Source of the DNA: an uncultured archaeon
Lineage (GTDB): Archaea; Asgardarchaeota; Lokiarchaeia; Sigyniarchaeales; SOKP01
Direction: 5' to 3'
Length of the DNA: 15,400 bases
Assembly (NCBI GenBank): GCA_964447495.1
Contig: CAYUTF010000076.1
Coordinates: 1 to 15,400, forward strand
Shown: positions 1 to 13,953 of the stretch, one piece after another
Layout: each line of letters starts with the position of its first letter
Numbering within the stretch: the first letter of the stretch is position 1
The notes under the pieces: model-generated
The model's database searches: none
What the model was told of the DNA's origin: nothing
The model's input: only the letters and a program-made list of their open reading frames with translations
Made by a program: the position numbers and the translations under genes

Positions 1-605
1 TTAAAGAAAATGCTATTGTAGTACCCGTACCCGATTCTGGTAGAAGTGTTGCTGTCGGCTATGCTAAAGAAGCTAAATTACCATATGTAGAAGGGTTAAT
101 GAAAAATCGTTATATATGGCGTACATTCATCCTTCCTGGTCAAAATTTGCGTAAAGCAGCAGTAAAAGAAAAATTGAATCCTATAAAAAGTTTTATTGAA
201 GGAAAAGATGTGATTCTTTTAGATGACTCAATAGTGCGTGGAACTACTATGAAACAAATTGTTCATTTGCTAAAACAACGAGGTGGTGCAAAACGAATTC
301 ATTTACGGATTAGTTGCCCCCCAATTATAAGTCCTTGCTACATGGGAATAGATTTTCCAACAAAAAAAGAGTTGATTGCAGCACGATTCTATAAAACCTA
401 TGGCGATTCTTATATCGAAGAGATACGAAAACATATTGGAGCAGATTCAATTTTGTATCAAACTAAAGAAGATCTATCAAGGGCAATAACTAAAAACGCA
501 AATCAATTATGTATGGCATGCTTAACAGGAAAATATCCTTTAAAGTCGGTTGAAAAGCTAAGAGAAATTGAGGACTCTATTGCTAAGGGCCGAGTAAATT
601 GTTAA
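1..605 (+). CDS. purF: Amidophosphoribosyltransferase, 3' part (5' end lies outside the window)
   Basis: The frame is open upstream of the called ATG at 99 (from nt 3: [33 protein letters not shown]). It has the PVPDSG motif, flexible loop [12 protein letters not shown]-binding motif [23 protein letters not shown] and the C-terminal Fe-S ligand motif [11 protein letters not shown]. Confidence 0.93.
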
Positions 606-609
606 ACCT

Positions 610-2007
610 TTATTCTACTCCATCCCAACAGTAAGTACATAAACAAGATTTTGGTAATCCTATTGCTTTAACAAGGTTCTCAAGTCTTTGATATTTTAAG
701 CTAGTTAATTTTAATTTCTGGCGAATAATATCTACCATTGCATTATAGTTTTCCGATTCGGGATCGATGAAATCTGCGGGATCATCAATGTTTTTCCCAA
801 TTAATTCTTTTATTGCCCATCTTCCTGCTAAATCTAATTCTGATCGTGATTGTGAGAAATTTAAGAATTTACAACCATAAATTAAGGGAGGACATGCAGG
901 TCGCATATGAACTTCTTTAGCTCCGTAATCAAATAATCTTTGAATGGTTCTTCGAAGTTGCGTCCCTCTTACAATGGAATCTTCACAAAATAATAGGCGT
1001 TTCCCTTCAATATACTCTTTTATTGGTATGAGTTTCATTTTTGCAACTAAATCGCGGGTAGATTGCTCTTGTGGCATAAAACTTCGTGGCCATGTGGGGG
1101 TATACTTCACAAAAGGGCGTAAAAAAGGTAATTTGGACTCATTTGCATAACCTAATGCGTGCCCAGTTCCGGAGTCAGGAATTCCTGCAACTAGATCGAT
1201 ATCTACAGCATCATTTTTAGCTAAGTAAGAGCCACATTTATATCTAACTGTCTCTACATTAATTCCTTCATAGTTTGAAGCGGGATAACCATAATATACC
1301 CATAAAAATGCACATATCTGTAACAGGTCTCCTGGTGGTATAACCTGTTTTAGGCTATTTTCATTAATATAAATAACTTCTCCTGGTCCAAGATACTTTA
1401 ATATTTCATATCCAAGGTTAGGAAAAGCACAAGTTTCCATTGCAACGGCATAAGAATTATCTTTCTTTCCAATAACTAAGGGTGTTCTTCCCAACCTGTC
1501 TCTTGCAGCATATATGCCTTCTTCTGTTAAGATCAACATTGTACAAGAACCATCTATCGATTCTTGCACTGCTTTAATGCCTTTTTCAAAGCTTTCTTCT
1601 TGGGTTATTATTGTTGCTACCATCTCCGTTGGATTTATCATACCTCCATGCATTTCTGAGAAATGGGCACCGTTTTTAAGTACCTCCTTTGCTAACTCCT
1701 CTAAATTATTGATTTTTCCCACTGTTGAGATAGCAAATACCCCTAAATGAGAGCTTATAATTAAAGGTTGGTCATCGTAATCGCTAATGACTCCAATTCC
1801 TTTATTTCCATGCATTTTTCTGATGTCATTCTTGAACTTAGAACGAAATTGTGTTGTCCGAATATCCTTAATGAATCTTTGAAAACCACCCGAATTTTTT
1901 ACAGCCAAACCCCCTCTCACCGTTCCTAAATGAGAATGATAATCGGTCCCATAGAAAAGTTCTTGTAAACAATCCTCACTCGAAAAAACGCCAAAAAGAC
2001 CACCCAT
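610..2007 (-). CDS. purF: Amidophosphoribosyltransferase-like protein (PurF paralog lacking the N-terminal nucleophile Cys)
   Basis: 465 aa with an Ntn-type N-terminal domain (ARDRLGRTPL) and a PRTase domain (GIPDSG, RSFMPQ, FCEDSIVRGT, RPACPP, C-terminal CTYCWDG). It begins MGGLFG instead of MCG. Confidence 0.85.
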   Translation of the reverse strand: MGGLFGVFSSEDCLQELFYGTDYHSHLGTVRGGLAVKNSGGFQRFIKDIRTTQFRSKFKNDIRKMHGNKGIGVISDYDDQPLIISSHLGVFAISTVGKINNLEELAKEVLKNGAHFSEMHGGMINPTEMVATIITQEESFEKGIKAVQESIDGSCTMLILTEEGIYAARDRLGRTPLVIGKKDNSYAVAMETCAFPNLGYEILKYLGPGEVIYINENSLKQVIPPGDLLQICAFLWVYYGYPASNYEGINVETVRYKCGSYLAKNDAVDIDLVAGIPDSGTGHALGYANESKLPFLRPFVKYTPTWPRSFMPQEQSTRDLVAKMKLIPIKEYIEGKRLLFCEDSIVRGTQLRRTIQRLFDYGAKEVHMRPACPPLIYGCKFLNFSQSRSELDLAGRWAIKELIGKNIDDPADFIDPESENYNAMVDIIRQKLKLTSLKYQRLENLVKAIGLPKSCLCTYCWDGVE

Positions 2008-2173
2008 GATATATCCACTATTTAAATTATCAGAACAAAATTTTTAAATTAATTTATTAATCTGATAAGAAAAATATTTTATATTCAAATTAAAAAACGT
2101 TTTTACATAAATGTGATTCAATTTCTAAATGAAAGTGATATTTTTTTAAACAAAAATAATTTAATTTAATTGA

Positions 2174-3469
2174 ATGAATGTATCAGCAATTATTTTTATA
2201 TTAATTTTATTCGCAATTTTAATGGCTTTCTTTTCCCAAGAAAGATACGATTATTTTCCTATAGCTTTAATCATAGGAGCTATTGCTGTAATATCAATGC
2301 TTACCTTTTTTAATGTTGAGGAACAAGAGATACTCGGCTTCATTAATTTTAGCACTTTAATCTTTATTTTTGCTATGCAGATAATTATTTATTATGCAAC
2401 ATCAGACCGTGTATTAGAATATATTTCTATCAAACTGATTCATATTACAAAAGGGAATAATCGGTTACTTTTTTATATGATTTGTGTGTTTACTGCTACA
2501 TTGGTTGCCTTTATTGAGGATATGACTCTTTCAATAATTCTAATGCCCTTAATCTACAGAACTTGTCAAGTCTTAAAGATACCTGCGGGTACGTACATGA
2601 TGGGTATGACAATATCAATTAATATTGGGGCAATACTTACGCCAATCTCAAGTTTAAAAAATTTAATAATCGGTCAGGAATTTGGGTGGGGTTTTGGAGA
2701 ATATTTTGCTAATATGGGTATACTTTACTTAATTACATTAATAACAACTATTTTCTTGATGGATCGCTTCATATTAAAAAAAGAGGAATCTCCAACGGAA
2801 TTTAACAAGAAGCTATTGTTATCATTTCTCGATCCTGGGATCGTAATTGAGAATAAAAAACACTTTATAACAACAGCTATAATCATTCTTGCCACTTTTG
2901 CGTTCATGTTATTAGGTTTTGCCCCTTCTCTTGTTGCAATCATATCTGCTGCGATTCTCCTAATTATTCATATGAAGAGCTCTGATTTCTCAGAAGTTAA
3001 GAAAGATATTTCGTGGAAAATTATAATACTTTTTGCAATATTATTCATTCTCTCGAATTCCTTGACAAAATTTGGATTTTCAGATTTAATTGCAACGATT
3101 TTAGGAAATATAATAAATGATAATATTTTCATTGCGGTGTTGATAACATTAAGCATCTCTTCACTTTTATCAGCATTTCTTGCGGGGACTCCCGTTACAA
3201 TCATCCTTCTTCCGATTTTTTCAGCAATTGTAGCAGAAAGCATTTTTCCTAATCCCATAATCATTGCTTTCATAAGTGGTGTCAATTTAGCAGGGAATTT
3301 CTTGCCGCAAGGTTCTGCCTGCGATATGCTCACTTTAACATTGGCTAAAAAATATAAAGTATCTAATCTAAATTACAATCGATTATTAAAAAATGGGTTT
3401 CTTTTCGCATCCTTACACTTCTTAATTGTATTGGGATACACAATGATTTATGCCTTAATATTAAGCTAA
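2174..3469 (+). CDS. Ion transporter (IT) superfamily permease, ArsB/NhaD/SLC13-like; substrate unknown
   Basis: 431 aa with about 11-12 hydrophobic segments in two halves. Motifs SINIGAILTPISSLKNLII and GVNLAGNFLPQGSACDML resemble the NxGGxxTPxGxPxN hairpins of ArsB/NhaD permeases. Confidence 0.8.
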   Translation: MNVSAIIFILILFAILMAFFSQERYDYFPIALIIGAIAVISMLTFFNVEEQEILGFINFSTLIFIFAMQIIIYYATSDRVLEYISIKLIHITKGNNRLLFYMICVFTATLVAFIEDMTLSIILMPLIYRTCQVLKIPAGTYMMGMTISINIGAILTPISSLKNLIIGQEFGWGFGEYFANMGILYLITLITTIFLMDRFILKKEESPTEFNKKLLLSFLDPGIVIENKKHFITTAIIILATFAFMLLGFAPSLVAIISAAILLIIHMKSSDFSEVKKDISWKIIILFAILFILSNSLTKFGFSDLIATILGNIINDNIFIAVLITLSISSLLSAFLAGTPVTIILLPIFSAIVAESIFPNPIIIAFISGVNLAGNFLPQGSACDMLTLTLAKKYKVSNLNYNRLLKNGFLFASLHFLIVLGYTMIYALILS

Positions 3470-3507
3470 TAGAAAACCCATAGATAAAAAATATGGAAAA
3501 TTTTAAT

Positions 3508-3615
3508 TTATACACCCGGAATTTTTTCATGTTCTAAATATTTCATGGTTATCGCATCATTTGGGCACGTTACCGCACACAAACCGCACCCTACACATCT
3601 ATTTATATCAATTAT
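3508..3615 (-). pseudogene. 4Fe-4S ferredoxin-motif coding segment without an ATG/GTG/TTG start before the motif, in frame after the hypF stop (gene remnant or readthrough extension)
   Basis: Manual translation of the minus strand gives IIDINRCVGCGLCAVTCPNDAITMKYLEHEKIPGV*, with a complete CxxCxxCxxxCP motif. It forms a GC-richer patch in an AT-rich spacer. Confidence 0.7.
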
Positions 3616-6015
3616 TTATTTTTCCTTTTGATATTTATAAATGCCTCCAATTAATTGCCCAATACTGATCCCAGCATCCCCCGGAGGAACAAGATTATGT
3701 TCTAAAAACTGGAATCCCGCATCTTGCACTTCTTTCTTGATTGTGGTTGAGAAAGAATAATTATATGCCACCCCTCCCGTTAGTCCAATATAGGGTATAT
3801 TTTTCGATTTTGCTGCGAATATAGCTTCTTTTGCAAAACCCTTGGCAATCTCAATTTGAAATTTACTTGCAATATCTTCTTTTATTATTTGTTTATCATT
3901 AAGCAAATCTATAATGTCTAAAAATAAGGTCGAGATATTACTTAAAGAACTTCCTTTTAAAGTTAATGGCACATTATCGGGGTTTCCTCTGGATGCTAAT
4001 GCTTCGAGTCGCATCGCAGGCTCTCCTCTATAGGTCTTCACATTGCAGGCACCTAATAAATAAGATACGGTATCAAAAATTCTCCCTGTCGAGGTAGTAA
4101 AAGGAATATTTTTGTGAGGAAATTTTCCGTTGGCTTCTTGCCATTGAGCAATTATTGCGTTCAACTCATCATTGCCATATTCTAAATCTTTTTTAATATT
4201 TAGTTGATTAAAATAAACCCGAGCTTCTTCGATTCCCAGCTTTCGTAGCAATATTGAAGCTAACATTCGAGCAGGATATTTTGTACATCGATCTCCCCCA
4301 ATCATAGGCTGTGGTTCTAATGCACCTACACGTTCATAAACATCATAAGAACACTTTAATATCTCTCCACCCCATATTGTATTTATCTTTTTATTCTCTG
4401 CGTATCCTACACCATCAGTAGCAATAGCAATGATTTCTTTATCCAAATGTATATCATTTTCAGCCATTAAACCCAAAGTGTGAGCAAAATGATGTTGTAT
4501 TGGGTAAATCGGTATATCAAACTTCAAGGATAACTCTTTGGCATACTTAGTAGTGATAAAAACTGGATGAGCATCACACGTAATGAATTTAATCTCTTCA
4601 TCTTTTATTTGCAACAGATTTTTCATGTGAAATAGAGCATTATTGAGAAATTCATACGTCTCTAAATGAGTAACATTTCCAATATGTTGAGTAGGAAATA
4701 TACGATTTTTTCTTAATACCGCTCCAGTAACTGCCAATTCAGGTCCAACAGCTAAGGCTGCCGGTATGGATACTTCAAAGGGTAATGACAAGTATTCTGG
4801 TACATAACCCCGCGATCTTCTAATCAATTTAACCGTTGTGTCATGAACTCTAAGAACACTATCATCGGCTCTTTGAAAAATTGGCCGATTATGAAGTAAA
4901 AATGCATCGGCAATATCTCCTAACTGCCGGAATATATCTTCATTATCTAAGCTCATTGGTATACTTGATTTATTGCCACTTGTGTAGATTAGTGGAATAT
5001 CTCCTACATAATCAAACAAAAGATAATGAATTCCTGAATAAGGGAGCATTACACCTACATTATTTAATCCAGGAGCAACTTGTTCACTAATATTTGAAAA
5101 ATGTGCATCCTTTTTTCTTTCTAATAAGACTATAGGTCGGCGAAAAGATGTTAAAAGTTCGTTTTCCATATCTGAAATAATAAAATCATCTTGAAGAATA
5201 TTAAGATTAGGGACCATTAATGCAAACGGTTTGTTTTTTCGTTTACCTTTCCTTTTTCTGAGTTTCAGTATGATATCATCATTATCTGCTAAACAAACTA
5301 AATGCACACCCCCTATTCCTTTAATCGCAATAATTTCTCCTTTTAATATTCTTTTAGAAGTTTCCTCGAGAATTTTCTCAATTTGATCTGTTATGATTAG
5401 TTCGCTGTTTTGATTGTAAAGCGAATAATTTGGACCACAAACCGAGCAAGCAAATGTTTGCGCATGAAAGCGTCTATTGTTAAAATCAGAATATTCTTCA
5501 ATGCAGGATTGTGGTTCTGCTTCTGAACAAAAGGGAAACTCCTTCATAGTTGTGCGAACGCGATCATATGGTAATTCTTTCACGGTGGTAAATCGAGGGC
5601 CGCATACAGCACAAGCTATGAAAGGATAATTATGATATTTCTTCAAGTTAGTATCTCTCATGTCTCTTAAACAATCATCACAAATTGCGATATCAGGGGG
5701 TAATGTCAAACTTATTCCTCTTCCTTGCTCGCTTTTTCTAATCTCAAGTGTATCATATTCAAGAGAATCCTCTATATCTTTAACAGATATTGATTCTATG
5801 AAGGAAATATTTGGTTTTTTAAATTTGACGTCTTTTATGAATTGTTCAATTTCGGTTGAATTACCCTGCAATAATAATCGTACTCCCGCATTTCCTCTAT
5901 TTAGGATGTATCCATTTAAACCGATAGAACGAGCTAGGTTAAACAAAAATGGTCGAAAGCCCACACCTTGCACTATTCCAATTATGTTAATTTCTACGGT
6001 TCTATTGATCTTCAA
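3616..6015 (-). CDS. hypF: Hydrogenase maturation carbamoyltransferase HypF
   Basis: 799 aa, TTG start. Acylphosphatase-like GIVQGVGFRPF, zinc fingers (CDDC...CAVCGPRF; C...C...CSVCGP), KGIGGVHL, CDAHP, QHHFAH, DGVGY, GDAGISIGQ. Confidence 0.97.
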   Translation of the reverse strand: MKINRTVEINIIGIVQGVGFRPFLFNLARSIGLNGYILNRGNAGVRLLLQGNSTEIEQFIKDVKFKKPNISFIESISVKDIEDSLEYDTLEIRKSEQGRGISLTLPPDIAICDDCLRDMRDTNLKKYHNYPFIACAVCGPRFTTVKELPYDRVRTTMKEFPFCSEAEPQSCIEEYSDFNNRRFHAQTFACSVCGPNYSLYNQNSELIITDQIEKILEETSKRILKGEIIAIKGIGGVHLVCLADNDDIILKLRKRKGKRKNKPFALMVPNLNILQDDFIISDMENELLTSFRRPIVLLERKKDAHFSNISEQVAPGLNNVGVMLPYSGIHYLLFDYVGDIPLIYTSGNKSSIPMSLDNEDIFRQLGDIADAFLLHNRPIFQRADDSVLRVHDTTVKLIRRSRGYVPEYLSLPFEVSIPAALAVGPELAVTGAVLRKNRIFPTQHIGNVTHLETYEFLNNALFHMKNLLQIKDEEIKFITCDAHPVFITTKYAKELSLKFDIPIYPIQHHFAHTLGLMAENDIHLDKEIIAIATDGVGYAENKKINTIWGGEILKCSYDVYERVGALEPQPMIGGDRCTKYPARMLASILLRKLGIEEARVYFNQLNIKKDLEYGNDELNAIIAQWQEANGKFPHKNIPFTTSTGRIFDTVSYLLGACNVKTYRGEPAMRLEALASRGNPDNVPLTLKGSSLSNISTLFLDIIDLLNDKQIIKEDIASKFQIEIAKGFAKEAIFAAKSKNIPYIGLTGGVAYNYSFSTTIKKEVQDAGFQFLEHNLVPPGDAGISIGQLIGGIYKYQKEK

Positions 6016-6039
6016 AAAGCGTTCCTAACTTCAGTAATG

Positions 6040-6050
6040 TTTATATAAAG
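6040..6050 (-). promoter_or_regulatory. Putative archaeal TATA box for hypF
   Basis: The minus strand reads CTTTATATAAA about 25-35 nt upstream of the TTG at 6015, inside a 121-nt hypD-hypF spacer. The AT-rich background lowers specificity. Confidence 0.4.
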
Positions 6051-6136
6051 CTTAATTTACATAATTATTTCTACATAAAAAAGGTATTAATTACTATACA
6101 TAACCTTGTGAAAATTAAATATTAAACTTACTAGTC

Positions 6137-7231
6137 TCACTCTTTATAATACTTATAATAAATACTACATGTTCCTTCCATAGATACCATACAAGGTCCA
6201 ATCGGATTAAGAGGAGTGCATTTTTCTCGAAATAGTTTACATTCATAAGGATACAACTTTCCAACCATGACTAAATGACAAGAACATCCGGGGGGAATAT
6301 CTTGAGATTTGGGAAGTTGTACATCAAATTTCTTATCCGCATCATATTCTTCGTATTTTTTTTTAATTGCTAAACCGCCATCGAGTATTCTACCTATTCC
6401 TCTCCATGGTGAAGATACACTTTCGAATACGTCATTTATTATCCCTTGGGCTTTCTTGTTTCCTTCCGGTTTTACCACTCGAGAATATTCATTCAATGTT
6501 TCGAATTTAGATTCTTTCTTTTGATTTAAGAGCATCAAAATCGCCAGTAAAACATCATTAGGTTCAAATCCCGTAATTACATTTGGGACTTTATAGGCGT
6601 CTGAAAAGATGTAGAAGGGCTGGAGTCCTATAATCGTCGCAACATGACCGGGAGAAATAAACCCATCAATATTCAGTTGGGATTGAGAAATTAATAATTC
6701 TAAAGCAGCAGGGATTAATTTATGAGCACAAATTACTGAAAAATTGGAAGGAGGGCCGTTTTGAATTTCATATCCGATTAAAGGCACAGTAGTTTCGAAA
6801 CCAATGGCAAAAAAAATCACCTCTTTTTGAGGATTTTCTTTTGCTATTTTAACCGCATCATGGGGGCCATACACTATCCGCACATCAGCTCCTTTAGCTT
6901 TTAGCTCTGCGAGAGAAATATTGGTAGCTGGGACGCGTATCATATCCCCAAAAGTAGTAATTATGGTATCTTTGCGTTTACCTAGCTCAACAGCTTTATC
7001 GATATCTGCAGCAGGGCAAACACATACTGGACACCCGGGACCTGAAAGAATTTCGATATTTTTGGGCAATAATGAGCGCAAACCATATTTTGAAATAGTG
7101 TGTTCATGAGTTCCGCACACATGCATGATCCGGCACGATCGATTAAAACTCTTAATGACTTTATTAATGTTTTCTACTATTTTTTTTGTGAAAGCTTCAC
7201 TTCTTAATAATTCAGTTCCAGGGATCTTCAT
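6137..7231 (-). CDS. hypD: Hydrogenase maturation protein HypD
   Basis: Motifs MHVCGTH, GPGCPVC, GFETT, PGHV, GFEP and the C-terminal GPCMVSMEGTC. Confidence 0.98.
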   Translation of the reverse strand: MKIPGTELLRSEAFTKKIVENINKVIKSFNRSCRIMHVCGTHEHTISKYGLRSLLPKNIEILSGPGCPVCVCPAADIDKAVELGKRKDTIITTFGDMIRVPATNISLAELKAKGADVRIVYGPHDAVKIAKENPQKEVIFFAIGFETTVPLIGYEIQNGPPSNFSVICAHKLIPAALELLISQSQLNIDGFISPGHVATIIGLQPFYIFSDAYKVPNVITGFEPNDVLLAILMLLNQKKESKFETLNEYSRVVKPEGNKKAQGIINDVFESVSSPWRGIGRILDGGLAIKKKYEEYDADKKFDVQLPKSQDIPPGCSCHLVMVGKLYPYECKLFREKCTPLNPIGPCMVSMEGTCSIYYKYYKE

Positions 7232-7246
7232 TGTATTCTCTCCTAA

Positions 7247-8299
7247 TTAACAAATTCGAGGAATTGGCTCCCCTAAGGGCATATCAATGAATCGAGTACC
7301 GCCTACTAAAGTTTTTAATAGCACTTTTTTAGGATTTTCTGAATCTACTTCTCCAATTATTTCTGCATCCTCTCCTATTTTAGTTGATTTGATTTTGTTC
7401 AGTATTTCTTCTGCCTTATCTGGAGATACAGATAAAAGAGCTTTTCCTTCACATGCCATAGTGTAGGTGTCTAAACCTAGCATGTCACAGATAGCATTAA
7501 CTTGTTTTTTTATAGGAACTTTTTGTTCCTCAATTATGATGCTTACATTTGATTTATTCGCCCAATCATTCAATGCACCAGCTATTCCACCTCGCGTTGG
7601 ATCTTTCATGGCGTGAATATGGTTATTTTGAATGTGCTCTTTAAGTATATTGTATATCTCCAATAATGATCCAACATCTGATTTCAGATCCGATGAAATA
7701 TTTAACCCCTCTCGACTTCCAATTAGAGCGGCTCCATGATCACCAATACTTCCGGTAACAATGATTTTATCTCCTTTTTGGAGATTATTATCTAAAACTC
7801 TGATATGTTTATCTTTCAACCCAATACCGGTTGTAGCCATTATGATCTTATCGAGACTCCCCCGTGGCATAACCTTTGTATCACCTGCTATGATGGCGAT
7901 ATTTGCTTCTCTAGCCGTATAATTAAATGAATTGACGATTTTTTCTAAGGAGTCAAAAGGGAACCCCTCTTCAATTATAATAACGGAAGTGATTGCAAGA
8001 GGTTCAGCACCCATCATAATTAAATCATTCACAGTTCCACAAATGCTAAGAATACCCAAATTTCCGCCTGGAAAAAAAAGAGGGTGGACTGTATGCCCAT
8101 CTGCTGTTACTACAATTTCCTGGTCATAATCTTCTAACGGAATTGTGGCTCCATCGTCCAGCTCTTCGACCCCTATTCCCTTATTAACATTCTTATATGT
8201 AATGTTTTGTGTAATAAAATTAATTAATTCTCCTTGTAATACTCCACCAGCTCCATGCGCTAAACGAATGACACTTGAGCTAACTTTTTTCATACTCAT
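7247..8299 (-). CDS. hypE: Hydrogenase maturation carbamoyl dehydratase HypE
   Basis: LAHGAGG, GTVNDL, GDTKV, MKDPTRGG and the diagnostic C-terminal PRIC. The start could be 8299 or 8293. Confidence 0.98.
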   Translation of the reverse strand: MSMKKVSSSVIRLAHGAGGVLQGELINFITQNITYKNVNKGIGVEELDDGATIPLEDYDQEIVVTADGHTVHPLFFPGGNLGILSICGTVNDLIMMGAEPLAITSVIIIEEGFPFDSLEKIVNSFNYTAREANIAIIAGDTKVMPRGSLDKIIMATTGIGLKDKHIRVLDNNLQKGDKIIVTGSIGDHGAALIGSREGLNISSDLKSDVGSLLEIYNILKEHIQNNHIHAMKDPTRGGIAGALNDWANKSNVSIIIEEQKVPIKKQVNAICDMLGLDTYTMACEGKALLSVSPDKAEEILNKIKSTKIGEDAEIIGEVDSENPKKVLLKTLVGGTRFIDMPLGEPIPRIC

Positions 8300-8628
8300 A
8301 CTTGAAAATAAGAAGCAAAAATTATAAGAATTTAGTTTCTAGAATGTAATGTGATTTCTTTTTCTAAAGCGAGATTGAAATTAAAATCAACTTAGATTAT
8401 ATGAATATCTATTCAAAAAAATCTCTTATCTAATCTTCTTAAATTAGCTTTTAAGGGATTATGAATAATGATTCACTACAAATAAGTAAAATCTGTCTCT
8501 TAAATAAACAAAAGCAGAAGCTTTTTTATAAAATTATGATTAAATATAAACAACTAATTTTTAAAAATAAATTAGCTAATTTAGGAAATTAAAAATTAAA
8601 ATAAAAAAAATTAAATGAGAGATACAAA
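8300..8628. promoter_or_regulatory. Divergent promoter region between hypEDF and the vhuGAU-hdrCB operon
   Basis: 329-nt very AT-rich spacer between divergent starts. TTATAA lies about 25 nt upstream of hypE (8322-8327, minus strand). Several TATA-like boxes occur on the plus strand, e.g. palindromic TTTTATAAAA at 8524-8533. Exact elements cannot be resolved. Confidence 0.5.
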
Positions 8629-9981
8629 ATGGTAAAAGTAGCTTTTATGCAATGTAGCGATTGTTGGGGATGTCATCAATCCTTATTGAATGCACATTAA
8701 GGAAAACATATTTTCTTAAGCAAAAATCTAGGATTGTTGCCAGTCCTTCCAGCGCTCGATATTGTATACTGGCCAGCTGTTGTTGACTTCAAACACGATT
8801 CATTGAAAGCACGACCCGACGGTGATATTCTCGTTGGGTTTGTTGAAGGCTCGCTTCGGACTAATGAAGATGTGGAAAATGCCAAACTCATGAGAGCAAA
8901 GTGTCAGTTAATTATCTCTTTTGGGTCTTGTTCGTGTTATGGAAATGTTCACGGACTTGCTAACCAATGGGACATTCAAAAGGTAATTAATCGAAAGTTT
9001 GTAGAAGCTGAGAGTATTACTGATGCTTCACCTCATGAACCTAAAGAGCACATGCCGGGATTTAGAGGTAAAATCGTGCCTTTAGACGATGTGATAAAAA
9101 TAGATGCATATATTGCCGGATGTCCGCCTAAACCTGAAGCAATTATAAGTGCTGTGCAATTCTTACTTGGACAGAAGCCATTTCCTATGAATGACTCTTC
9201 GTTTTGTAATGATTGCGCTCTGAATAATGAAAACTGTCTATTAGAAAAAGGCAAATTATGCTTTGGTCCGATTACCAGTACGGGTTGCTCCTTAAAATGT
9301 ACCAGTAAGGGTGACCCATGTGTAGGATGTTTTGGACCCTCTAAGACGGTTTCAAACAGAGCAGGAAAATTATTAGGGATGGCAGGAAACTTAAATCAAT
9401 TGAGTACTGGTGACAAAAAGAATTTGTATGAATTCTTATCTCTATTTTTAAATGTGCCATTAATGGCTGGATTCGATCTAGCTGGTGATATCTTAAAGCA
9501 AATTAAGATTAAGGGAGAAACACGAACTGCTTTAGCGAATTTGCCTTCGGAAACTGAACAGATCGCGTCAAAAGTCATGGCATTCTTACGGGATCATAGG
9601 GATTTCACAGAAATTTCGAATGTATGCGATACCTGTCCGAGAATCATCAATTCGTCATCTACAATGACAAGAGTCAAGCGTGATTATGAGAGTCTTCCCA
9701 ATATGGATGATTGTTTAATTGAACAAGGATACATCTGCATGGGACCTGTCACAAAAGCTGGTTGTGGTGGATTATGTATGAGAGTAAACGCACCCTGCAC
9801 TGGGTGTTTTGGACAAACTGAATGGGTGGCAGACCAAGCATCTCGATTTGCTGATGTGGTTACTAAGGGATTTAATGTTGCTTTATCGAAAGAAGAATTA
9901 TTAAACCAAGTAAAAGATCACCTTGGTACCTTCCAAAAGTTTACTTTAGCATCAAATAAATCATATAAAGGAGGAGAATAG
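8629..9981 (+). CDS. mvhG: F420-non-reducing (group 3c) hydrogenase small Fe-S subunit VhuG/MvhG; two exons, 8629-8695 and 8726-9981 (440 aa if spliced)
   Basis: ATG 8629 gives MVKVAFMQCSDCWGCHQSLLNAH, which carries the proximal-cluster CxxC absent from the called ORF. An in-frame TAA follows at 8698. The same frame continues with VEGS, FGSCSCYG, GCPP and two Cys-rich Fe-S modules. Confidence 0.9.
8696..8725 (+). other. Candidate 30-nt archaeal BHB-type intron in vhuG mRNA
   Basis: Sequence ATTAAGGAAAACATATTTTCTTAAGCAAAA contains the in-frame stop and an internal hairpin. It is flanked by two 3-nt bulges around a short central helix and an exon-exon helix. Removal gives ...AAT GCA CAT CTA GGA TTG... 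(NAHLGL). Confidence 0.75.
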
Positions 9982-9986
9982 ATAAA

Positions 9987-11291
9987 ATGGTAAAAGAAAT
10001 AGAAGTTGAACCGGTCACTCGTCTTGAGGGCCACGGTGGTTTAAGAATTGTGCTAGGCGATGATGGGAAGGTTAAAGATGCGCAATTTAATATTACCTCT
10101 ACTAGATTTTTTGAAAAATTTTGTGAAGGGCGCTATTGCGAACACGTACCTCGAATCACTCCAAGAATTTGTGGTATCTGTCCGATTCCTCATCATCTCA
10201 CTCCTACGAAAGCGGTTGAGGATGCATGGGGTGTAAAGATTCCCGAGCCCGCCTATAAGCTTCGTCAACTACTACAGAACGCAAAACAATACTCATCACA
10301 CCTATTACATTTTTATGCGCTGGCCGCACCAGACTTTCTTTTGGGGCCTTTTGCGGATCCCGCATTACGAAATGTGGTGCATGTGATTAATAAGATGCCA
10401 GAAGTCGGAGCGATGGCTTTGAAAATGATGGATTTCGGTCAGAAGCTCTGCGCAGAAATTGGAGGAAAATCAGTGCATCCTATAAGTGCAATTGTAGGTG
10501 GCATGAAAAAACCCATGGATGAGGACGCCCGTGATAGATTCTTGAAACAAATTGATGAGCAGATTGAGTTTACTAAGAAAACGGTGGAAATTGGTTTAAA
10601 AGTAGTCGATGATTATTGGGATGTTATTGCAAACGTAGGGGTAGTACCCACATATTACCTTGGCATGACGAAAAACGGTGTACATGATATTTATGATGGA
10701 GATATTCGCATAGTCACGCCTGATGGTAAAAAGATTGATTATGATGTTCATAAATATCTGGATGTACTTGGTGAACACATTCCCGATCATTCATACGCCA
10801 CACACATGTATTATAAACCTGCTGGCTATCCTGAAGGTATATATCGAGCAAATTGCTTGGCAATGATTAACGCAGCCGATAAGATGGCAACACCCTTAGC
10901 GGATGGAGCGTTAAAGGCATTTCGAGAGAAAACTGGCCCGATATCGCATCACACATTCGCTTATCACTGGGCTCGAATAATTGAAACTGTAGAATCAATA
11001 GAAATGATTGCAACTCTCTTAAAGGATCCTGATATTGTCAATCCCGATTGTAAAACGTTAGATGTCGAGCCTAGAGAAGGTATGGGTGTTGGTGTTACTG
11101 AAGCTCCCCGAGGACTCTTACTCTATAACATCTGGAGTGATGCAGAGGGCATTTGTAAGAAATTAAACTTATTAGTTGCCACCAATCATAACATAGCGGG
11201 AATAGAAAAGACTCTAATGCATACAGCGAAGCAAGTTTTCGAAGACAAAGCCTTAGAGGGATTAAAATTACCAGACCCCTGGATAAAATAA
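9987..11291 (+). CDS. mvhA: F420-non-reducing hydrogenase large subunit VhuA/MvhA, lacking the C-terminal metal-binding motif
   Basis: EPVTRLEGHG, RFFEKF, L1 motif PRICGICP and EAPRG are present. It ends ...LPDPWIK with no DPCxxCxxH (L2) motif. An SD-like GGAGGAG precedes the start. Confidence 0.95.
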   Translation: MVKEIEVEPVTRLEGHGGLRIVLGDDGKVKDAQFNITSTRFFEKFCEGRYCEHVPRITPRICGICPIPHHLTPTKAVEDAWGVKIPEPAYKLRQLLQNAKQYSSHLLHFYALAAPDFLLGPFADPALRNVVHVINKMPEVGAMALKMMDFGQKLCAEIGGKSVHPISAIVGGMKKPMDEDARDRFLKQIDEQIEFTKKTVEIGLKVVDDYWDVIANVGVVPTYYLGMTKNGVHDIYDGDIRIVTPDGKKIDYDVHKYLDVLGEHIPDHSYATHMYYKPAGYPEGIYRANCLAMINAADKMATPLADGALKAFREKTGPISHHTFAYHWARIIETVESIEMIATLLKDPDIVNPDCKTLDVEPREGMGVGVTEAPRGLLLYNIWSDAEGICKKLNLLVATNHNIAGIEKTLMHTAKQVFEDKALEGLKLPDPWIK

Positions 11292-13173: not shown

Positions 13174-13953
13174 ATGTCGTTTAGTTCAAAAAGAGAGCCT
13201 CCATGGTTTTTTCAATATATAGAGAGTTATTCCCATATTCTATTAGATATTAAATTTGACAAATTTGATATCACTCGAGACAAAATTGATTTTTCAATAC
13301 ACTTGGATGTTCGTGGATTCGAAGGGTTATTATTTTATATTTATAAACCGCGACCAAGTCAAATTGAGTTTGATGTCGTAAATCAAAAGGAGGTTAACGT
13401 ACATAAACTTGAAGATTTGCATGTTGATATTATGAATAAGAAATCTCCTAGACGTTCCCTTGATTTTATAATTATTCCTTTTGGATACTTTAAAGAATCG
13501 AACAAGTTTATTCCTTCGGTTTATACTGGAAGAGTGGAAAATACATACCAGATTTATACTTGGTCGCCTTCTCTGTTATTTAAAAATGTAAAATCGATTA
13601 TTAAAATTTCAAATAAATATAATGAATTAATCCCTTATGATGATGTAGAGAGATACTATTACAACTTTGACGCGTCGTTTAAAGCCAATAAAACTGAACA
13701 CTTGTTTAATTTAATAAACCTTTTAGTATCGTTTGATAATTTAGAAGGAATCGAACCGATAGTCTCTGAAATTAAAAGATTAATTTCAAAAACCAATGAA
13801 TTTCTCTTTGAATTATCTCAAAAAGAGATTCCGATCGAGATGCAAAATCTATTAAGAGAACTAGAACGATTAAAATTTAACCTAGACAATTTGAGTAAAG
13901 AAGAGATATTTAATTGGTTAGATGATCTTATCTCCTTTTATTACCATAAGTGA
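13174..13953 (+). CDS. Hypothetical protein (259 aa, soluble, helical C-terminus)
   Basis: Long ORF with ATG start in an AT-rich genome. No motif recognised. Confidence 0.75.
   Translation: MSFSSKREPPWFFQYIESYSHILLDIKFDKFDITRDKIDFSIHLDVRGFEGLLFYIYKPRPSQIEFDVVNQKEVNVHKLEDLHVDIMNKKSPRRSLDFIIIPFGYFKESNKFIPSVYTGRVENTYQIYTWSPSLLFKNVKSIIKISNKYNELIPYDDVERYYYNFDASFKANKTEHLFNLINLLVSFDNLEGIEPIVSEIKRLISKTNEFLFELSQKEIPIEMQNLLRELERLKFNLDNLSKEEIFNWLDDLISFYYHK

Follow-up and report, generated by a model that had tools for sequence, protein, structure and literature searches.

The window, a 15,400-nt stretch of an Asgard archaeal contig (C76 of genome G000), carries a [NiFe]-hydrogenase small-subunit gene whose reading frame is interrupted by a 30-nt insert containing an in-frame stop codon. 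This insert (8696–8725, plus strand) is very probably a genuine bulge-helix-bulge (BHB) mini-intron in the hydrogenase small-subunit pre-mRNA. A first-pass annotation of the window had proposed a tRNA-type intron in the hydrogenase gene, and the proposal was supported in silico by the exact gap in homologous proteins, by BHB inserts in relatives and by purifying selection. From these data we strongly infer splicing, i.e. cleavage and ligation, of the window RNA.

The gene (8629–9981, plus strand; ATG at 8629, stop codon at 9979–9981) probably encodes an MvhG/VhuG-like small subunit, assigned from its sequence. It has an N-terminal Cys motif and a Pfam Oxidored_q6 domain (E = 1.6e-18 in a 415-aa downstream open reading frame, ORF), it adjoins genes for a large subunit and Hdr-like proteins, and its homologues are named “F420-non-reducing hydrogenase small subunit” in JGI. 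In G000 it was the single copy (E ≤ 1e-60). Read from the ATG, the frame encoded MVKVAFMQCSDCWGCHQSLLNAH with CWGC at codons 12–15, met TAA at 8698–8700 and was then open in the same frame to 9981. The sequence and its translation thus bore out what the first-pass annotation had said of vhuG: its start at 8629, the CWGC motif, the TAA at 8698 and resumption in the same frame. Exon 1 (8629–8695, plus strand) comprised 22 codons and 1 nt and included the CWGC motif, and exon 2 (8726–9981, plus strand) ran through the stop codon and contained the Oxidored_q6 domain. The TAA lay within the intron; on unspliced RNA, translation would end after 23 residues, and the earlier claim that unspliced mRNA gives only a peptide of this size agreed with the position of the TAA.

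The small-subunit frame, with its stop read as X, was used as query against protein collections. There were 594 matches, from sources including Promethearchaeota, Lokiarchaeota, Thorarchaeota, Heimdallarchaeota and Hodarchaeota, names which fitted the probable Asgard source that had been assigned to the window. Nearly all of the best 120 matches were 435–444 aa long, against 450 aa for the read-through frame. Of 19 aligned homologues, 16 lacked exactly ten columns (X-GKHIFLSKN) between NAH and LGLL, i.e. exactly the 30 nt of the insert, and the check that had been proposed, contiguity of NAH/LGLL in homologues, came out as predicted (here and below the slash marks the insert position). The other three (P0004, P0040 and P0105) were N-terminally truncated gene calls whose non-homologous first residues ended exactly at LGLL. 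All full-length homologues aligned had the CWGC motif. Excision of 8696–8725 in silico deleted the stop and gave the seamless SLLNAH-LGLLPVLP that had been foreseen; the frame across the junction read ...SLLNAH-LGLLPVLPALDIVYWPAVVDFK in an ORF of 440 aa, compared with 438–441 aa in homologues. The Oxidored_q6 match covered only residues 20–141 of the 415-aa ORF. The other ~270 residues, rich in conserved Cys motifs, had no Pfam match at the threshold used, and the small subunit was unusually long.

The transcript around the insert can be drawn as a BHB motif with two 3-nt bulges and a central helix. The 5′ strand of the central helix H (AUGC, 8690–8693, plus strand) is exon sequence from an Asn and an Ala codon, and the 3′ strand (GCAA, 8720–8723, plus strand) is intron sequence; three of four positions pair, the unpaired one being A8690·A8723. 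The bulges are ACA (8694–8696) on the 5′ side, with a predicted cut at 8695/8696, and AAA (8724–8726) on the 3′ side, with a predicted cut at 8725/8726. Between the strands of H lies the intron hairpin h′ (8697–8719; 9 bp, 5-nt loop). The exon-exon helix h (5′ strand 8677–8689, 3′ strand 8727–8736) consists of GA (8688–8689) with UC (8727–8728), 2 bp, and, beyond an internal loop, of CAAUCCU (8677–8683) with AGGAUUG (8730–8736), 7 bp. RNAfold of 8670–8745 gave −17.6 kcal/mol (z = −2.95), and one of 200 shuffled sequences was as stable. The minimum free energy (MFE) structure showed the 7-bp helix 8677–8683/8730–8736, the UGC/GCA central helix, the ACA bulge and the 9-bp hairpin, so that most of the fold drawn in the first-pass annotation (7-bp exon-exon helix, UGC/GCA with the A-A mismatch, ACA bulge and intron hairpin) was recovered. 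The GA/UC pairs and the AAA bulge of that drawing were absent from the MFE structure, where they sat within a larger internal loop; the GA/UC pairs are possible, and they co-vary in relatives (G-C to A-U). The motif modelled for the window is thus a relaxed form of BHB. Rfam gave no family match in 8500–8900, and blastn-short found no further copy of the intron in G000.

Only four position pairs in the window restored the frame, and 8696–8725 was the sole option with a BHB; boundaries at 8697–8726 or 8698–8727 would give the same protein product. For each insert-bearing locus of this gene family (described below), all deletions restoring the conserved N-terminus (three to seven options) were listed, and each was given a BHB score on the assumption that cleavage follows the second bulge nucleotide. 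Across all loci, the best-paired central helix belonged to the option that lay in BHB register and had two 3-nt bulges; in one case (G173), a neighbouring option with 3/4 pairs encoded an identical protein. Cutting in silico after bulge nucleotide 2 restored the conserved protein in 13/13 inserts. The central helix had 4/4 pairs in eight of these, among them the site-B inserts of G173 and G271, and 3/4 in five (the window, its three close variants and G276). BHBs of window quality (at least three of four central pairs, inner helix of at least 9 bp, outer helix of at least 2 bp) with lengths of 28–32 nt occurred in G000 at 411 of 38.1 million position/length combinations, a rate of ~1.1e-5. Since only four position pairs restored the protein, this background put the coincidence far beyond chance, and the earlier argument that the structure-predicted cuts match the protein-restoring sites too well for chance was sustained.

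Where the exon strand of the central helix varied synonymously, the intron strand varied to match. At site A (SD/CWGC) the exon and intron strands co-varied as UCCG/CGGA, UCUG/CAGA and ACUC/GAGU; at site B (NAH/LGLL), the site of the window insert, exon AUGC stood with intron GCAU, GUAU, GCAA or GUAA, the relatives of the window having GUAA, GUAU or GCAU. Among six site-B sequences, 87.6% of cells were paired, compared with 29–55% when the partners were slid; four pairs had changed on both sides, and 0/500 shuffles reached the observed covariation score. Coming from six related sequences only, these site-B statistics are suggestive and do not amount to a probability. Two-sided changes were seen in both helices h and h′ (in h′ at three of nine pairs), and the co-varying exon-exon pair 8688/8728 (G-C to A-U) changed two synonymous Leu codons together. 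RNAalifold independently recovered the central helix, the 5′ bulge and the hairpin.

Four hundred genomes of the phylum were searched and the gene was found in 142. DNA was inspected at 38 loci, namely the 30 best and eight whose match began late or held a stop. Inserts were present in ten of the 38 and absent from 27, and one (G164) had no recognisable 5′ exon. Together with two metagenome variants (L069 and L114) there were 13 inserts, one gene (G271) having two. All lay at three sites within the first 25 codons: site B in the window, G232, G173, G271 and the two metagenome variants; site A in G257, G238, G266, G258, G167 and, as its second insert, G271; and a third site (MQ/LSD), two codons upstream, in G276. 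Lengths ranged from 28 to 32 nt (30 nt in four inserts, 31 nt in six, and also 28, 29 and 32 nt). Nine of the 13 inserts, in eight of 12 insert-bearing loci, were frame-shifting, their length not being a multiple of three. In-silico removal gave complete ORFs of 436–443 aa at 11/11 full-length loci; G271 without both inserts read MAIKVAFMQNSDCWGCHQSLLNAHLGLL.... On a tree of the 38 rows, a biased sample, the intron distribution was patchy, with site-B introns in two separate clades and at least two changes needed for site A. A pattern scan of metagenomes returned 93 stretches, three of them in the hydrogenase gene (L069, L114 and a copy of the G271 sequence); the remainder lay outside it and were rejected as chance matches. 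The locus without a 5′ exon (L033, G164:C188:5800–7800) had no CWGC exon or start codon recognisable over ~700 nt upstream of its VYWP anchor. It keeps ...LLNVH/LGLL contiguous; the gene may there be truncated or rearranged, or have taken up a far larger insertion.

Insert-bearing genes are under strong purifying selection. The ratio of non-synonymous to synonymous divergence (dN/dS) among them was 0.03–0.14, with synonymous divergence (dS) from 0.33 to ~2. It was 0.03–0.04 between the window and G232 or L114, where dS was ~2 (saturated), and 0.05–0.14 for genes with frame-shifting inserts. In exon 1, the four sequences with a 30-nt insert differed pairwise by two to six synonymous and zero non-synonymous changes, and the encoded protein was identical.

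An origin of the insert in faulty assembly or sequencing, as might be suspected from a fragmented source genome (metagenome-assembled, 3.8 Mb, 98% complete, 223 contigs), is refuted for practical purposes by independent assemblies, and we regard it as the least probable of the alternatives. The 30-nt insert occurs, with small differences, in the genome of another species (G232) and in two contigs from metagenomes (L069 and L114), and a separate run yielded a DNA contig that spanned 8461–8799 with 0 differences and no gap; the insert is thus real in DNA, a point that the first-pass annotation had wanted confirmed. A dead or dying gene, made a pseudogene by a stop-bearing 30-nt insertion, would account for the in-frame TAA after 23 codons and for gene callers annotating just the 415-aa downstream ORF (P0002). 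This reading is strongly disfavoured and very improbable: between insert-bearing orthologues with saturated synonymous sites dN/dS was 0.03–0.06, the differences in exon 1 were synonymous only, inserts of 28, 29, 31 and 32 nt (8/12 loci) left complete 436–443-aa ORFs once removed, and the sole gene copy of the genome adjoins intact hypF, hypD, hypE and large-subunit genes.

It is marginally less improbable, yet still highly unlikely, that translation starts downstream, e.g. at TTG 8734, giving a functional truncated subunit with exon 1 as a separate leader peptide or untranslated. The 415-aa ORF does begin at 8734, and truncated calls stand in several databases (P0002, P0004, P0040 and P0105); such a product would, however, lack the CWGC motif that all aligned full-length homologues have, exon 1 is under purifying selection and in frame with the BHB-defined junction, and at site A the frame-shifting insert precedes CWGC, so that a start there would fall inside conserved sequence. 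The selection figures and the single gene copy thus fit neither a pseudogene nor a downstream start that ignores exon 1. Rescue during translation and not through RNA splicing, with the ribosome either reading through the stop codon or bypassing the hairpin (hopping), appears as improbable as the pseudogene. The 30-nt insert is in frame and a stable hairpin directly follows the stop codon, as it does in known bypass elements. Read-through, however, offers no rescue for the nine of 13 inserts that shift the frame. Against bypassing, the triplet before the landing point in the window (AAU, compared by eye) does not match the take-off codon (CAU), and the feature that all three sites have kept is the BHB geometry, with its 4-bp helix and its pair of 3-nt bulges, a geometry that plays no part in bypassing.

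In the BHB intron reading, exon AUGC (8690–8693) would pair with intron GCAA (8720–8723) in the folded transcript, giving a central helix flanked by two 3-nt bulges on opposite strands, the intron hairpin and the exon-exon helix. The tRNA splicing endonuclease EndA, probably in a two-subunit form, would cleave both strands after the second nucleotide of the bulge, and RtcB would join the exons to give ...NAH/LGLL... in a 440-aa protein. G000 encodes two EndA paralogues (PF01974 above cut-off) and one RtcB (PF01139). One EndA paralogue best matched chain B of PDB 3p1z, 3ajv and 2zyz (E = 8e-36 to 8e-28), which we take to be crenarchaeal heterotetramers; the other best matched PDB 1a79. For Asgard archaea, an (αβ)2 EndA equipped with the broad-specificity loop is reported (PMC5829648). 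aragorn -i called introns in 15 of 56 tRNAs of G000, several of them implausible (670 and 807 nt), and no called intron coincided at its position with the strict BHB candidates. Calibration of the cut rule on tRNAs being thus unsuccessful, the rule was taken from work on cbf5 introns, for which a cut between bulge residues 2 and 3 is predicted (Yokobori 2009, PMC2738675).

Several observations weigh against the intron reading. The window motif is imperfect: in the window and its three closest variants the central helix has only three pairs and an A·A mismatch, the immediate exon helix h is just 2 bp, and the MFE fold puts the 3′ cut site in the larger internal loop. The eight loci added for late or stop-bearing matches bias the sample towards interrupted genes, so that 10/38 is too high as an intron frequency. 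RNA data were assembled contigs from three metatranscriptome runs, mapped to the window; no spliced junction, cDNA or circular intron was found among these contigs, positions 8704–8747 being uncovered in all three runs. Finally, a crude scan of G000 found ORF-restoring BHBs no more often than decoys, the scan being too noisy for a few introns. Here a loose search for introns in coding sequences gave 139,474 candidates, and when four central pairs, at least 5 bp in the inner helix, a length of at most 50 nt and fused open frames of at least 60 codons were required, there remained 37 true candidates, compared with 36–59 decoys. Decoys had the 3′ cut moved by 1–2 nt, and repeat-rich bins were removed. 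With no excess over decoys, coding-sequence introns are not demonstrably common in G000.

Two RNA contigs reached the junction region. One, from run X12, covered 8632–8703 with three differences; as spliced and unspliced forms are identical at six of the first eight post-junction nucleotides, it is compatible with spliced RNA, unspliced RNA or the sequence of a relative. The other, from X11, followed exon 1 to 8696 with five differences and passed directly into LGLL-encoding sequence with different codons. It was rejected as a spliced form, since the five differences and the different codons point to an intronless relative in that RNA library.

A BHB intron in the cbf5 pre-mRNA of Crenarchaeota was reportedly described by Watanabe in 2002. 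Like the introns here, those of cbf5, a pseudouridine synthase gene, are short, lie inside coding sequence and often have a relaxed BHB; their hosts have hetero-oligomeric EndA, and their distribution is patchy with gains and losses (PMC2738675). They differ in that the host gene here is a hydrogenase small-subunit gene and the phylum is Asgard, with insertions at three places among the first 25 codons and as many as two introns per gene, splicing being deduced from sequence. Asgard tRNA genes are heavily interrupted (bioRxiv 10.64898/2026.10.13.758758), and their BHB introns share with the present ones the lineage, the motif definition and the presumed (αβ)2 EndA (same preprint; PMC5829648). 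The substrate here is instead an mRNA coding region, in which codons, and not a tRNA fold, set the constraints on the exon half of the motif. Neither “mRNA” nor “hydrogenase” occurs in the main text of that preprint. According to the text of a 2020 study, cbf5 was the sole earlier BHB intron outside tRNA and rRNA, to which the study added a 5′ untranslated region (UTR) case, HVO_1309 of Haloferax volcanii (PMC7714728). This mRNA, too, is processed by the tRNA splicing endonuclease, and intron removal matters for its expression; it differs in having the intron in an untranslated leader, not in coding sequence, and in its euryarchaeal host with another EndA form (PMC7714728). A search of the openly available main texts of the literature found no published account of BHB introns in mRNAs of Asgard archaea or in genes for hydrogenases. 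Within this searchable literature, cbf5 of Crenarchaeota is the only coding-sequence precedent found. In eukaryotes, HAC1/XBP1 mRNA loses a small intron by unconventional cytoplasmic splicing, with Ire1 cutting at stem-loops and RtcB-type ligation, and needs it for the full protein. The endonuclease and the recognition motif are different there and the system is a stress-regulated switch, so that the likeness is a functional analogy and not membership.

The hydrogenase introns would thus be a rare case of protein-gene splicing in archaea, and would provide a second host gene for archaeal coding-sequence introns, one that encodes an enzyme of core energy metabolism, in the Asgard archaea, which are the nearest lineage to eukaryotes. 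Three insertion sites, two introns in one gene and exon codons co-varying with the intron are unusual features, and the motif would offer a compact natural substrate (~60 nt) for studying the specificity of Asgard EndA on mRNA. The clustering of three sites in the first 25 codons may reflect function, i.e. splicing-dependent translation, or a local propensity, in that a relatively G+C-rich coding stretch may supply the exon half of the BHB. That BHB mini-introns were gained repeatedly at the 5′ end of the small-subunit mRNA and act as an EndA-dependent switch is rather unlikely, and a regulatory role of splicing in hydrogenase expression is speculative. If there were such a switch, unspliced mRNA would yield no peptide longer than 23 residues, production of the hydrogenase would depend on how active the tRNA-splicing machinery is, and the closest archaeal relatives of eukaryotes would have regulated protein-gene splicing.

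Upstream of the small-subunit gene, on the minus strand, lie hypF, hypD and hypE, intact by Pfam. The next gene of the operon (9987–11291, plus strand) is uninterrupted and encodes the [NiFe]-hydrogenase large subunit (Pfam NiFeSe_Hases), followed 3′ on the plus strand by HdrC-like and HdrB-like genes with Fer4 and CCG domains (Pfam). Downstream of these, a 259-aa ORF (13174–13953, plus strand) had no Pfam match at E ≤ 0.001. A search for the large-subunit gene in 135 family genomes gave matches in 104, almost all full-length and without stops; the gene was 82–96% identical across nearly all of them and was essentially never interrupted, whereas the small-subunit gene has three intron sites among its first 25 codons. 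A few of the large-subunit matches were partial (e.g. G244 from residue 12, G166 from residue 63) or had one TAA (G154 and G228).

In the G000 scan, BHB-like candidates fusing long frames piled up at lengths of 23, 25, 29, 31, 35, 37 and upwards (period 6) in few bins, which points to tandem-repeat regions with long open frames. Among public gene calls, P0002, P0004, P0040 and P0105 are N-terminally truncated calls of insert-bearing orthologues that start inside the insert. Because gene callers truncate insert-bearing genes, Asgard hydrogenase inventories may mis-annotate functional genes as truncated or broken. The truncation is a systematic annotation error for such genes, and P0004 alone represents 38 member sequences.

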